A DNA stretch of 64,000 nt. It comes from a bacterium. Its GTDB lineage: Bacteria > Planctomycetota > B15-G4. How positions within the stretch are numbered: position 1 is the first letter of the stretch; each line of letters opens with the position of its first letter. The DNA is taken from positions 18,892-82,891 of the forward strand of contig JAUIEF010000002.1 of the NCBI GenBank assembly GCA_030428785.1. The letters are read 5' to 3'. The notes under the pieces were generated by a model. That model saw only the letters and a program-made list of their open reading frames with translations. It did no database searches and was not told where the DNA came from. This document shows positions 1-61,849 of this stretch, piece after piece. Both the position numbers and the translations under genes were made by a program.

Positions 1-477
1 ATCGGCGTGGGCTCCCACAAGCAGTCGAGCGCCGGCACCGGGGTGAACCCGACGGACCCCGGTTCCGCCAGCTCCTCCGGGGCGGCGTACGTCTTCGACA
101 CGCCCGGCACGTGGACGGACCTGGGCGGCGGGTCGACGGGCGCCGCGAGCACCCCGCTTCTCGCGGGGACGGGGCCGCTGTTCTCCGAGGCGTCCACGAC
201 GATCGCGCTGAGCGACGCGCCCGGACACACCCTGTTCCTCGTGTGGTTCTCGCTCGCACCGACGCCGTTCGCGGCGCTCGGCGGGACGGTCCACGCCTTC
301 CCGTTCGCGAACCAGTTCCTCTTCGCGTCGGACGCGGCCGGCGGGTTCTCGGCGACGCTCGCGTGGCCGTCGTTCATCCCCTCCGGCACCGAGGTGTGGT
401 TCCAGTGCATCGTGCAGGACGCCTCGACCCCCGCGGGTCTCACGCTGTCGAACGGGCTCCGCGCGACCTGCCCGTAG
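1..477 (+). CDS. 3' end of a secreted protein gene that starts upstream of the window; carries the recurrent ~100-aa C-terminal domain
   Basis: Frame 1 is open from nt 1 to the TAG at 475-477. The translation (LFLVWFSLAPTPFAALGGTVHAFPFANQFLF...WFQCIVQD...TLSNGLRATCP) aligns with the C-termini of the genes at 2244-4262, 4414-6426, 32638-33591, 56260-57816 and 60854-61849. Confidence 0.6.
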   Translation: MGVGSHKQSSAGTGVNPTDPGSASSSGAAYVFDTPGTWTDLGGGSTGAASTPLLAGTGPLFSEASTTIALSDAPGHTLFLVWFSLAPTPFAALGGTVHAFPFANQFLFASDAAGGFSATLAWPSFIPSGTEVWFQCIVQDASTPAGLTLSNGLRATCP

Positions 478-549
478 ACACACGGCGCGCTCACCCGACG
501 AGCGCGATCCCCACCCCGAACGCGATGCGCCGCGCCGCGCGCCCCGTCG

Positions 550-1056
550 TCAGCTCCCCGGCTTCGGCACGTGCTGGTCGAGCAGGATCGGGTTGCCGTC
601 CGGGTCGGCGAGCATGAGGTGCGCCGGGCCGTCGGAGTCCGGGTCGGCCGTCACCGTGAGCTCGAGGCCGCGATCCTGGAGCCGCGCCTGGATCGCGCGC
701 ACGTCCTCGAACGGACCGTCGAGCGGCTGCGCCTGCGGACCCCAGCCCGGGTTGAACGTCATCATGTTCCGCTCGAACATGCCCTGGAACAGGCCGATCG
801 TCGTCGTGCCGTTGCGCAGGATGAGCCAGTTCTGCTCGAACTCGCCGCCGGCGACCGCGAAGCCGAGCTTCTCGTAGAAGTCGCGCGAGGCGGCGAGGTC
901 GCGGACGGTGAGGCTCACGGAGAAGGCGCCGAGGGACATGGCGGAGGGCTCCTTGGTGGAGGTGTCGTCGGCGCGCGGACCGGCGGGGACGAGGACGGGC
1001 GCGAGCGCCGCGCAGGCGGCGAGAACGAACGGGACGAGCGAGCGGGTGCCGGACAT
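550..1056 (-). CDS. VOC/glyoxalase-bleomycin resistance family protein with N-terminal signal peptide
   Basis: The ORF's N-terminal 63 residues are R/P-rich junk. ATG at 1056 is preceded by GGAG. Signal-like [20 protein letters not shown] is followed by a glyoxalase-fold motif (FYEKLGF...GLELTV..DPDGNPI). Confidence 0.8.
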
Positions 1057-1243
1057 GGGACGCTCCGGGTGAGGGGACGACGCGACGCGCGGGACGTCCG
1101 CGTGTCGGGGACGGGGACGGCGGGACGTGCGGCGCCGGGAACCGCCCGGCGACCGCGCCCTCGACCGACGGCTGGTATGGTCGCCGACCGGCTGGCCGCC
1201 GGCTTGCCGGATCTTGCGAAACCGCCCGGGAGCCGCGCGAGCC

Positions 1244-2221
1244 ATGACCGTCGACTACGTCGCGGCGGTGAACCGCGCGCTCGACCACGTGCGCGACCAC
1301 CTCGACGGCCCGCTCCGCCTGGACGACGTCGCGCGCACCGCGGGCTTCTCGCCGTTCCACTTCCACCGCGTGTTCCGCGCGCTCGTCGGCGAGACGCTCG
1401 GCGACCACGTGAAGCGCGTCCGGCTCGACCGCGCGCTCTTCCTCATGACGCACGGCGGGGCCGGCGGCGCGCGGCCGCCGCTCACCGAGGTCGCGCTGGC
1501 CTGCGGCTTCTCGTCGTCGTCCGACTTCTCGCGCTGCTTCAAGCAGCGGTTCGGCGTGCCGCCCAGCGTCTTCGACGTGTCGACCTGGCGCGACGCGCGG
1601 CGCGCGGAGCTCGAGGCCGCGACACGTCGCGCGACCGACCCCGTCGACGGGGCGCGCGCCGAGACGCGCGGCGCGGACGCGGCCCGCGCGACCGAGCCGT
1701 CGCCGCGCCGGCTCACGCGCCTCCCTCCCGGCGAGAACCCGGACGGCTTCCGCGTGGAGCTCGTCGAGCTGCCGCCGCGCACCGTCGCCTACCGGCGCGT
1801 CGAGGACCCGTACCGAGGCGGCGACGTCACGGGGACCGTCCGCCGTCACGTCGCCTGGGCGGAGGAGCACGGGCTCGCCGACGGCGCGTGGCTCGCGTAC
1901 CAGTGGGAGGATCCGGAGATCACGCCGCTCGAGCAGTGCCGCTACGACATCGCCGTCGTCGTGCCGCCCGGGCACCCCGTGCTCCGCGTGCCCGGCGAGG
2001 TCGGCCGCCACGACTTCCCGGCGATGACCGTCGCGCGGGTGCGCGTCGACGGCGACGTCGCGCTCGAGCTGCGCGCCCTCGACTGGCTCTTCGGCACCTG
2101 GCTCCCGTCGAGCGGACACGTCCCCGACGACCAGCCGTGCTTCGAGGCCTTCGTCGGCCGCCCCTTCGCGCACGGCACGGAGCGCTTCGTGCTCGATGCG
2201 CTGTTGCCGGTGCGGCGGTAG
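1244..2221 (+). CDS. AraC-family transcriptional regulator with C-terminal GyrI-like effector-binding domain
   Basis: AraC HTH region ([17 protein letters not shown]...[22 protein letters not shown]) plus a GyrI-like C-terminal half. Divergent from the VOC gene across a 187-bp intergenic region. Confidence 0.85.
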
Positions 2222-59666: not shown

Positions 59667-59783
59667 CGGGCGGTCCCGGCGGGTCGGCGAGCGCGCGCCC
59701 GGCGCCCGGACGCGAGCGCCCAGCCTAGTGCGCGGCGGCCGCGCGCGGTCCGCGGTCACCGATGCGTCAGCGGTCGGCGCGCC

Positions 59784-60764
59784 TCAGCCGTCCCCGGGCG
59801 CGAGGCCGCGCACGACCCAGCGGTCGCCGCGCAGGGACCAGTGCACGACGAGCGTGCCGTCGCCGCAGGTCCAGGTCGTGCGGCCGGCGTCGTCGCGGAA
59901 GTCGTCGGTGCGCGCGCCGAGCGTCGGGAAGTCGTCCGTCCAGCCGCGCCGCTCGACGAGCCGCTCGAAGGAGCGCCCCATCGACACGCGCGAGGACTCC
60001 GCGAAGCCCGCGGTGACGCCCTCGACGGAGGACGCGGCCCACGCCTCCTCGAACGCGCGCAGCGCCGGCGCGACGGACGGCGGCCGCAGCCACAGGAACC
60101 ACGCCGCGACGGCGAGCACGACGGCTCCTCCCGCGGCGAGACCGACGCGCACGAGGCTCCCGCGGTCGGCGCGCCGGCGGCCGCGGCCCTTCGCGCGCGC
60201 GGTGAGCTGCCCCTCCTCCATCTCGTCGCGACGCCGGTGGTGCCGCAGCGCGTCCCAGAGGTCGGGATGCTCGGCGACGAGCGACGCCGCGCGCTTCGCG
60301 CGGAACGCGACGAACCAGAGCCCGGCCGTCAGCAGGCCGGCGTAGCCGTACACCCACCCGGCGGCGCCCGTCACCGCGACGAGCAGGAGCAGCACGAGCG
60401 TCCGCAACGACGCGAGGAGCGCGCACCACAGGAACGGCTCCCGGAACACGCGGACGGCCGCCACGACCCACAGCGCGATGAACCCGCCGGTGAACGCGAC
60501 GACCGGCGTCTCCGCCTCCCCCGACGCGACGTCGACCCAGAGCAGGAGCGCGTCCGCGACGGCGCCCACCGCGAAGATGAGCCGGATCGCTCGGAGGTCC
60601 CGGCGCACGTTCGTGAGCTCGCGGCCCACCGTGAGCCGACGCCGGCTCAGCTCCGCGTCCCGCGGCTCGCCGCACGCCCCGCACTCCCGGTCGCGGTTCG
60701 GGTTGAGCGCGCTGCACCCCGCGCACGTCCACATGCTCGCCGGGATCGTGCCTGTCTCGGTCAT
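59784..60764 (-). CDS. membrane protein with N-terminal RanBP2-like zinc ribbon
   Basis: WTCAGCSALNPNRDRECGACGEP, followed by about 4 TM helices and a C-terminal soluble domain. Confidence 0.55.
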   Translation of the reverse strand: MTETGTIPASMWTCAGCSALNPNRDRECGACGEPRDAELSRRRLTVGRELTNVRRDLRAIRLIFAVGAVADALLLWVDVASGEAETPVVAFTGGFIALWVVAAVRVFREPFLWCALLASLRTLVLLLLVAVTGAAGWVYGYAGLLTAGLWFVAFRAKRAASLVAEHPDLWDALRHHRRRDEMEEGQLTARAKGRGRRRADRGSLVRVGLAAGGAVVLAVAAWFLWLRPPSVAPALRAFEEAWAASSVEGVTAGFAESSRVSMGRSFERLVERRGWTDDFPTLGARTDDFRDDAGRTTWTCGDGTLVVHWSLRGDRWVVRGLAPGDG

Positions 60765-60853
60765 GGTCGGGTCATCCTCGGGCCCTCGCTCGGTGCTCCC
60801 CGAGGAGAAGCGACAACCGACGCGGAGGGAGGAGCGGAAAATCCGCCGACCCG

Positions 60854-61849
60854 TCAGTTCCCGATGACGACGTCCAGCGCGTTCGTGTAGTACCCCGTGA
60901 TCGTCGGGTCGACGGTGACGACCTGCAGGCAGAAGCGCACGTCCACGAGGATGCAGAGCGGCGGCACGTAGAGGTGCAGGCTGTCGGGCGGCGTCCGGAT
61001 CTGGTTGAGGAAGGCCGGCGGCTGGCAGAGCAGCGTGCCGGCCGGCGGCGCGGGCACGTTCGCGGGCAGCGCCGTGAAAAGGTAGATGTCCGCGATGGCG
61101 TTCGGCACGAAGGTCGTGTGGTCGACCCACGGGTCCCAGACGACGCCGAGCGCGGGCGGGCCGGTCGTCGACGGCATGAGCACGAGCGGGTTGGGCGGCG
61201 TGCCCGCGCGCACGAACTCGAAGCCGGCGATCGGCGGGACGGTGCACTGCGGCACGAGGCTCACCGTGTCGATGCCGAGCTCGGACCGCCAGTTCGTCGG
61301 GTTCGGCGCGGTGACGCTCATGGCCGTGAGGCGCAGCGTCTGCGTCGGCGCCGTCGCGGTGAACGTCATGCTGTGGAACTGCCACGTCGCGGGCACGCCG
61401 ATCGCCGGCGGCAGCATGACCGGCGAGTCCTGCACCGCGGCGCCGAACTGGATGCGCCACCAGCCGCCCGCCGGGTCCATGCTGCCGAGCAGCGTCGCGG
61501 ACAACGCCTGCTCGAAGGTGATCGTGTACGTCGCGCCGGGCGTGAGGCCGCTGATGTCCTGCTCGACCCACTCGGCCGGGTTGAGCAGGCCGACGCCGTG
61601 CACGAAGGTGCCGCCGCCGAGGCTCGTCGACCACGCGGTGCCCGCGGCGGTCGTCGTGCTGTTCCAGAGGTCCGTGCCGCCGAAGCCGACGCCGGTCCAC
61701 CCGGCGGGCACGACGCCGTTGTAGGTGGTGAAGTCGGCGGTGCCGTTCATCGCGCCGTTCACGACGGACTGCGCGGCGGCGAGCGGCACGAGCGCGAGGA
61801 GGCAGGCGGCGAGGGCGAGCGGCCGGACGAGCGGGGGGCGGGTGTTCAT
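60854..61849 (-). CDS. secreted protein with Cys-containing variant of the recurrent C-terminal domain
   Basis: Signal peptide MNTRPPLVRPLALAACLLALVPLAAAQ. C-terminus GTLLCQPPAFLNQIR...FCLQVVTVDP...TNALDVVIGN. Confidence 0.7.
   Translation of the reverse strand: MNTRPPLVRPLALAACLLALVPLAAAQSVVNGAMNGTADFTTYNGVVPAGWTGVGFGGTDLWNSTTTAAGTAWSTSLGGGTFVHGVGLLNPAEWVEQDISGLTPGATYTITFEQALSATLLGSMDPAGGWWRIQFGAAVQDSPVMLPPAIGVPATWQFHSMTFTATAPTQTLRLTAMSVTAPNPTNWRSELGIDTVSLVPQCTVPPIAGFEFVRAGTPPNPLVLMPSTTGPPALGVVWDPWVDHTTFVPNAIADIYLFTALPANVPAPPAGTLLCQPPAFLNQIRTPPDSLHLYVPPLCILVDVRFCLQVVTVDPTITGYYTNALDVVIGN

Follow-up and report, generated by a model that had tools for sequence, protein, structure and literature searches.

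An undescribed domain family shared by exported proteins of Planctomycetota, with features of a terminal targeting or anchoring module

A 64,000-nucleotide stretch of planctomycete DNA (lineage B15-G4; assembly GCA_030428785.1, contig JAUIEF010000002.1, positions 18,892 to 82,891; hereafter the window) raises the question of why one unassigned domain should recur in a series of its secreted proteins. The original prediction, made from the sequence alone, counted at least eight copies, of which seven lay at the extreme C-terminus of otherwise unrelated proteins and one was N-terminal, and proposed a shared sorting, anchoring or binding module that defines a co-regulated secretome island. Our analysis retains six of these copies, and we regard the module as a domain family that has not been described before, probably of the known type of shared terminal targeting or anchoring modules of exported proteins.

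Six copies of one module in the window

All eight gene calls of that prediction correspond verbatim to NCBI proteins, encoded on a single contig of 109,885 bp, and each complete carrier gene that it named begins with a Sec-type signal peptide ending in A-x-A-Q. A narrow profile hidden Markov model (HMM) was built from the terminal ~125 residues of five of these genes and residues ~48-172 of the metallo-beta-lactamase (MBL) hydrolase, and was run against all 589 six-frame open reading frames (ORFs) of the window. Six ORFs were matched, with expectation (E) values of 1e-49 to 1e-58, and nothing else rose above noise. A broad HMM, which comprised 170 database members of the module family, recovered the same six ORFs (E 1e-38 to 1e-55). 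Membership of the new family, taken as a significant profile match over ~125 residues that includes the key positions, extends to these six ORFs:

100..474, + strand: module copy 1, C-terminus of gene 1-477, truncated by the window start (HMM E 1e-55 narrow, 7e-52 broad)
2247..2621, - strand: module copy 2, C-terminus of gene 2244-4262 (HMM E 5e-58 narrow, 1.6e-47 broad)
4417..4791, - strand: module copy 3, C-terminus of gene 4414-6426 (HMM E 2e-57 narrow, 1.8e-44 broad)
25363..25731, - strand: module copy 4, N-terminal in the MBL-fold hydrolase gene 24523-25881 (HMM E 1e-50 narrow, 5e-43 broad)
32641..33015, - strand: module copy 5, C-terminus of gene 32638-33591 (HMM E 7e-49 narrow, 6e-38 broad)
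57439..57813, + strand: module copy 6, C-terminus of gene 56260-57816 (HMM E 2e-56 narrow, 6e-55 broad)

The count of six, or roughly one window gene in ten, is made up of five copies at the extreme C-terminus, all of which run up to the stop codon, and one N-terminal copy. Pairwise identity among the modules is 30-48%, except for the 85% shared by the copies of genes 2244-4262 and 4414-6426. This identity range, together with the E-values, points to homology rather than composition, and the repeat, which is reproducible by profile methods in six of the 589 ORFs, is judged from these sequence comparisons to be real, ancient and not compositional.

The carriers combine the module with different cores. 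Gene 2244-4262 combines a signal peptide, two PKD domains and FG-GAP repeats, both matched by Pfam, and the module; in gene 32638-33591 a signal peptide is followed by a domain of ~200 residues without assignment and then the module. The host part of gene 56260-57816 consists of two internal repeats of ~170 residues (local alignment score 439) behind a signal peptide; its resemblance to CBM_6 is weak (E 0.086), and it is a lectin-like domain without family assignment. In gene 24523-25881, the module follows the signal peptide and precedes a Pro-rich linker, with Lactamase_B at residues 221-379, which confirms the N-terminal copy of the original prediction. The description of the hosts as otherwise unrelated holds insofar as these signal-peptide proteins have different cores, but not for genes 2244-4262 and 4414-6426, a pair of tandem paralogues that share 63% identity when the module is excluded and 67% overall. 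Upstream of module copy 1, the residues encoded by the truncated gene 1-477 resemble an FG-GAP_2-type repeat (AAYVF).

Two further C-termini had been counted as copies:

28946..29350, + strand: C-terminus of the beta-helix-like gene 28049-29353, a possible very remote relative and not a demonstrable member
60857..61261, - strand: C-terminus of gene 60854-61849, a claimed copy that is unsupported as a member

The first of these was scored at E 0.13 by the narrow HMM and went undetected by the broad 170-member HMM. In the hhalign alignment its register was correct (E 0.011), but the probability was only 3.9%; it outscored 1991-2000 of 2000 shuffles (p about 0.0005-0.005). A homologue search with this C-terminus found none detectable, and its single-sequence AlphaFold2 (AF2) model was unusable, with a predicted local distance difference test (pLDDT) score of 46. 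On its sequence it may be a remote, as yet unproven, relative of the module. The C-terminus of gene 60854-61849 found no support as a copy, with an HMM E of at least 6, an hhalign E of 0.4 and 30-241 of 2000 shuffles scoring equally. The claim of at least eight copies is therefore reduced to six (profile E 1e-38 to 1e-58) and that of seven extreme C-terminal carriers to five, the other two having failed the profile tests. The real protein of 60854-61849 (- strand) bears a weak resemblance to DUF642/choice-of-anchor C proteins, and its C-terminal ~110 residues are without assignment. An antisense ORF (61086-61721, + strand), in which every third codon position is G or C (GC3 = 1.00), overlaps this gene. 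The G+C content (GC) of the window is 72-77% throughout and mechanical ORF lists are full of spurious frames; this antisense ORF illustrates how unreliable such lists are at 75% GC.

Across the window modules, W5, G9-G10, G61-G62, P68, G81, Q102 and D107 are conserved, while the key positions of the family profile, over ~125 residues, are W5, G61-G62, W89-P90, Q102, D107 and S117-N118; the module alignments bear out the consensus motif first proposed. The module also remains unassigned: no Pfam or NCBIfam model matched it in scans of the carriers (E≤0.1) or, for Pfam, of the isolated modules (E≤10), and comparison of its profile with Protein Data Bank sequences gave only chance matches (E≥0.14). 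An AF2 model of module copy 6, based on a 30-sequence alignment, is all-beta with 11 strands (pLDDT 96.8; predicted template modelling score 0.88). This confident model marks the module as an autonomous domain, and it is predicted with high confidence to be an independently folding beta-sandwich of ~125 residues. Foldseek searches with the model returned nothing at E≤1e-3; template modelling (TM) scores were about 0.4-0.5, and no type IX secretion system (T9SS) C-terminal domain (CTD), cohesin or carbohydrate-binding module (CBM) stood out.

Nothing follows the module, neither a transmembrane helix nor a basic tail, and the window proteins end in ...TTP, TAQ or TAF. This agrees with the earlier judgement that it is not a PEP-CTERM, MYXO-CTERM or LPXTG tag, and the absence of T9SS CTD motifs is likewise reflected in the failure of CTD models to match. 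A Cys-Cys pair directly before the first strand is common in N-terminal and stand-alone copies of the module (AAQFTCCNPW, AAQCCDPW, GTGCCSTF; seen in the 25731-25750 region of the window and in database members P0198 and P0027), and is missing from C-terminal copies.

Family size, lineage and hosts

An exhaustive HMMER search over 1.84 billion cluster representatives (clusters at 50% identity) assigned 8,032 clusters to the module family at E≤1e-3, 4,867 at E≤1e-10 and 1,560 at E≤1e-30, and the W, Q, D and SN positions are conserved among these database relatives. The end of the domain is the last residue of the protein in 161 of the 170 members examined. Almost all members that end within one residue of the terminus finish in Pro (149 of 164), with the consensus [AG][TV]TP-COOH, and a hydrophobic N-terminus was found in 97 of 117 long members.

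The organism names seen on family members are those of Planctomycetota, with the sole exception of a metagenome-assembled genome (MAG) labelled Pseudohongiellaceae. The two proteins concerned, P0028 and P0197, are close relatives of the window proteins of gene 32638-33591 and the MBL hydrolase, and were deposited under 'Pseudohongiellaceae bacterium' (Gammaproteobacteria); this MAG looks like a mis-binned or misclassified planctomycete. When genomes were scanned for the subfamily pattern A[LI]GGTVHA[FYA], it occurred only in one Planctomycetota MAG and at a Pseudorhodoferax locus, and the latter was rejected as a member of the module family. A related Planctomycetota MAG of 5.29 Mb contains at least nine copies of one module subtype, dispersed over 1.6-4.8 Mb. 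At one locus of this MAG (L002, 1612-5841), three ORFs in succession each end in a module, which suggests local tandem expansion. Cultured Engelhardtia mirabilis encodes an orthologue of the MBL carrier, 52% identical and with the module. The GC range of the Saltatorellus clade, 67-70.5% (10.1101/817700), is compatible with a relative of 75% GC. The module is used by a lineage of Planctomycetota that includes Engelhardtia of the Saltatorellus clade, and it recurs in thousands of proteins from related uncultured bacteria. A planctomycete marker is also present in the window itself, where a gene for cytochrome P460 (9249-10031) precedes an ORF that encodes the Planctomycete cytochrome c domain PSCyt1 (9249-10936 in all, + strand).

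Host families were surveyed in the 93 best-scoring family representatives. These hosts are very diverse and mostly not carbohydrate-active enzymes (CAZymes); they include FG-GAP proteins, SGL, NHL, Kelch and SBBP propellers and PKD proteins, as well as a gingipain-like C25 peptidase, a polyhydroxybutyrate depolymerase, a metzincin, a pyrroloquinoline quinone dehydrogenase and a purple acid phosphatase. Of their 60 host Pfam families, 25 were listed, and none of these 25 is a glycoside hydrolase family. Several hosts match NCBIfam families of the 'choice-of-anchor', HAF repeat or ScyF type. In other phyla, members of these families terminate in a PEP-CTERM, LPXTG or T9SS tag, and their NCBIfam names derive from this. 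The C25 peptidase carrier (P0158, locus L013, 4533-6992) has a strong gingipain-like Peptidase_C25 match (Pfam E 6e-50) and a weak NCBIfam match to PorU, ends in the module, and shares its 7-kb contig with a second module carrier.

Two architectures depart from the C-terminal arrangement. Of the 119 best homologue clusters of the MBL hydrolase, 83 keep the order of signal peptide, module, Pro-linker and MBL domain seen in gene 24523-25881, among them that of Engelhardtia mirabilis. In Phycisphaerae orthologues of this gene (P0305, P0291 and P0306), an N-terminal type I dockerin occupies the exact position of the module. The dockerin assignment is supported by a precomputed PF00404 match for P0305 and by dockerin-like motifs in eight Phycisphaerae-type clusters. 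Other MBL homologues have neither module nor dockerin, or are tandem-duplicated MBLs of ~600 residues. In addition, the module occurs by itself behind a signal peptide in stand-alone proteins (P0014, P0024, P0026, P0027 and P0094; loci L014-L017). P0026 is encoded directly behind an S8 peptidase gene and P0014 was found on four contigs; no recurring partner was found in the gene context of the C25-peptidase carrier and the stand-alone modules.

Retention at the cell surface and competing explanations

From these architectures, we infer that the module is a position-tolerant accessory domain with its own function, evolutionarily interchangeable with known anchoring and sorting devices. This leads us to favour, tentatively and at somewhat less than even probability, a role as a position-tolerant, non-catalytic surface-retention or targeting tag on Sec-exported proteins that would bind a common receptor in the envelope. 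A carrier would be exported via its N-terminal signal peptide, in line with the signal-peptide-like sequences seen, and the module, predicted with high confidence to fold on its own, would then bind a shared envelope receptor, which could be a scaffold protein or a surface glycan. Varied enzymes and FG-GAP or propeller proteins would thereby be held at the cell surface, as is the case with dockerin, SLH and other anchoring modules. The module would function at any position in the protein, with evolution overwhelmingly placing it at the C-terminus.

The points that we count in favour of surface retention are the size of the family, the C-terminal ...TTP ending, the autonomous fold, the signal peptides and the diversity of hosts, along with the choice-of-anchor hosts, the flexible position, the dockerin swap and the stand-alone copies. 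One parallel is with dockerins (PF00404), including the non-cellulosomal dockerins of Planctomycetota/Phycisphaerae, which are likewise non-catalytic and mostly C-terminal, sometimes N-terminal, on diverse secreted enzymes, and which share a position with the module in orthologous MBL hydrolases. However, a dockerin is a duplicated calcium-binding helical (EF-hand-like) module of ~70 residues, in contrast to the predicted all-beta sandwich, the module has no PF00404 match, and we know of no cohesin-like partner for it. A comparable exchange is evident for PEP-CTERM, MYXO-CTERM and LPXTG tags, which the module replaces on homologous ectodomains (HAF repeat, ScyF-like NHL and choice-of-anchor repeats). 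Each of these tags combines a short motif with a transmembrane helix and a basic tail and is a substrate of exosortase, sortase or rhombosortase, whereas the module is a soluble domain of 125 residues with no tail.

Several points weigh against surface retention. The receptor or scaffold, the binding and the surface location are all putative. The C-terminal bias of the module and its exact ...TTP-COOH end are equally expected of a C-terminal sorting signal, and all that follows from the dockerin swap is that module and dockerin are both accessory; it does not establish a shared role for them. The predicted fold matches only generic immunoglobulin (Ig)-like or macroglobulin (MG)-like domains, so the structure gives no function, and the host-family evidence is confined to the 93 best-scoring representatives.

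A C-terminal secretion or sorting signal analogous to the T9SS CTD, in which an outer-membrane translocon or a sortase would read the folded module, which would then be cleaved or swapped for a surface anchor, is an unlikely alternative that nevertheless fits the C-terminal bias. The extreme C-terminal position in 161 of 170 members, the conserved ...TTP end and the many diverse cargo-like hosts per genome are all in its favour. The type A CTD of Bacteroidota (PF18962 Por_Secre_tail / TIGR04183) is similarly a folded C-terminal beta-sandwich found on many unrelated signal-peptide proteins per genome. Hosts overlap as well: C25 peptidases and choice-of-anchor families occur with either domain, host families of the module elsewhere use a T9SS CTD or PEP-CTERM, and the module-bearing C25 peptidase P0158 parallels the C25 peptidases of Bacteroidota with their T9SS CTDs. 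Despite these parallels, the module has no profile match to the CTD, in full carriers at E≤0.1 or in isolated modules against Pfam at E≤10, and with 125 residues and 11 predicted strands it is larger than the CTD (~70-100 residues, 7-stranded and Ig-like). The CTD is always at the extreme C-terminus, whereas the module is also N-terminal in 83 MBL clusters and gene 24523-25881 and occurs as a stand-alone secreted protein. The conserved N-terminal copy of the MBL hydrolases argues against a strictly C-terminal sorting signal, and the stand-alone proteins, consisting of signal peptide and module, fit a binding module and not a pure export signal. To our knowledge, no T9SS is known in the phylum of the module, and SprA/Sov, PorV, PorU and GldKLMN are absent from the annotated genes of the 64-kb window. 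By analogy, and as 'choice of anchor' is understood, the module probably works most like a dockerin or a T9SS CTD, but it differs from both in profile, fold and architecture and so belongs to neither family.

Also doubtful is a lectin- or CBM-like domain directed at an external polymer, a particle or the surface of a prey cell, rather than the producer's own envelope. A beta-sandwich is typical of CBMs and lectins, the conserved W5, W89, Q102, D107, S117 and N118 could form a binding site, and the module is position-tolerant and can stand alone. The lifestyle of cultured Saltatorellus-clade members, which form aggregates or came from biofilms on particles (10.1101/817700), was also counted for this role. 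The host spectrum does not fit it, as the hosts are not mainly CAZymes, and the module has no CBM match.

A role as a purely structural Ig-like domain, or as a propeptide that aids folding in the manner of the pre-peptidase C-terminal domain (PPC), with no part in addressing, appears quite improbable. The fold is generically Ig/MG-like, many bacterial exoproteins end in such domains, and PPC (PF04151) and other terminal Ig-like or CBM accessory domains are, like the module, small C-terminal beta-sandwiches on secreted hydrolases. Nevertheless, the module matches neither PPC nor the Big families, its hosts are far broader than peptidases and there is no sign of cleavage. The same domain is placed on dozens of unrelated cores at one terminus, and both the invariant polar residues and the copies that stand alone indicate that the module has its own function; of the rivals, a passive role is the least compatible with such reuse. 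The closest structural comparisons, with the MG domains of alpha-2-macroglobulin, complement and CD109, amount to 8-14% identity, a Foldseek E of at best 4e-3 and TM scores of about 0.4-0.5. MG domains recur inside large proteins that trap proteases, and their likeness to the module reflects the general Ig/FN3-like fold.

There is next to no chance that the similarity is a mere by-product of composition, in coding sequence of 75% GC biased towards Ala, Gly, Pro and Thr: the window is indeed 72-77% GC and abounds in spurious ORFs, but profile searches refute the idea (HMM E 1e-38 to 1e-58, with no other of the 589 ORFs matched). The conservation of the W, Q, D and SN positions across 8,032 relatives in the database and the confident fold prediction also speak against it.

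Gene neighbourhood and meaning of the family

The window encodes ~50 genes, and the carriers occupy both strands and are distributed across 62 kb. Among the carriers lie genes for Dus, isocitrate dehydrogenase, PurE, PurK, an SNF2 helicase and two Ser/Thr kinases, and other genes unconnected with a secretome encode AraC and LysR regulators, an ECF sigma factor, a phosphate porin, an alpha-carbonic anhydrase and pirin. An epimerase, an amidohydrolase, a GNAT protein and an ion channel are also encoded between carriers. Exported proteins without the module comprise a sulfatase, an FG-GAP_2 protein, an FG-GAP/P-domain protein and a beta-helix protein. Genes for exported proteins form short same-strand runs (sulfatase with 4414-6426 and 2244-4262; beta-helix with MBL; FG-GAP/P-domain with 32638-33591). 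In the first of these, a minus-strand run from 9169 to 2244, the sulfatase gene (6536-9169) is followed by 4414-6426 and 2244-4262 with gaps of 109 and 151 nucleotides, and these three genes may be co-transcribed. The proposed 'secretome island' was rejected, since the carriers lie on both strands among ~50 mixed genes, interleaved with housekeeping genes, and are dispersed in the related 5.29-Mb MAG; the density of modules in the window reflects a very high-copy family rather than an island.

Some neighbouring genes merit a brief description. The two Ser/Thr kinases (16653-19331 and 52515-55988, both - strand) are large and eukaryote-like, one with TPR repeats and the other, of 1157 residues, with many WD40 repeats; the gene for the WD40 kinase adjoins the ECF sigma factor gene (51869-52525). 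The porin gene (42815-44905, - strand) encodes a phosphate-selective porin O/P domain behind an N-terminal extension of ~335 residues without assignment, and lies downstream of a gene (40679-42754) for a protein with three CarboxypepD_reg domains. A small ORF (12603-13061, - strand) matches DUF6036/AbiEii-type nucleotidyltransferases and may be a component of a toxin-antitoxin system. The carbonic anhydrase gene (49116-49964, - strand) is of the eukaryotic (alpha) type.

Although the island was not upheld, the proposal of a sorting, anchoring or binding module is still the best class of explanation for an unassigned domain on signal-peptide proteins with different cores, and no description of the module was found in literature on Planctomycetota sorting domains, Saltatorellus, choice-of-anchor families or planctomycete dockerins. 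The family bears on how proteins are delivered to, and retained at, the unusual and fragile envelope of Planctomycetota, and of the Saltatorellus clade in particular, and the module is placed where other phyla put PEP-CTERM, T9SS CTD or dockerin tags. It is conceivable, though we think it unlikely, that a lineage-specific sorting or surface-attachment system, so far unrecognised, operates in Saltatorellus-clade Planctomycetota and uses the module as its cargo tag, read by dedicated machinery in the envelope. If so, the module would be a functional parallel of the T9SS CTD or of PEP-CTERM/exosortase, unrelated in sequence and position-tolerant, and much of the surface proteome of these bacteria would bear it. 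The module could serve as a handle for sequence-based prediction of the lineage's surface proteome, for finding the receptor or machinery by phylogenetic profiling, and for the engineering of surface display, while its occurrence in cultured Engelhardtia mirabilis makes its role directly testable. A database model for the family would annotate thousands of hypothetical proteins.

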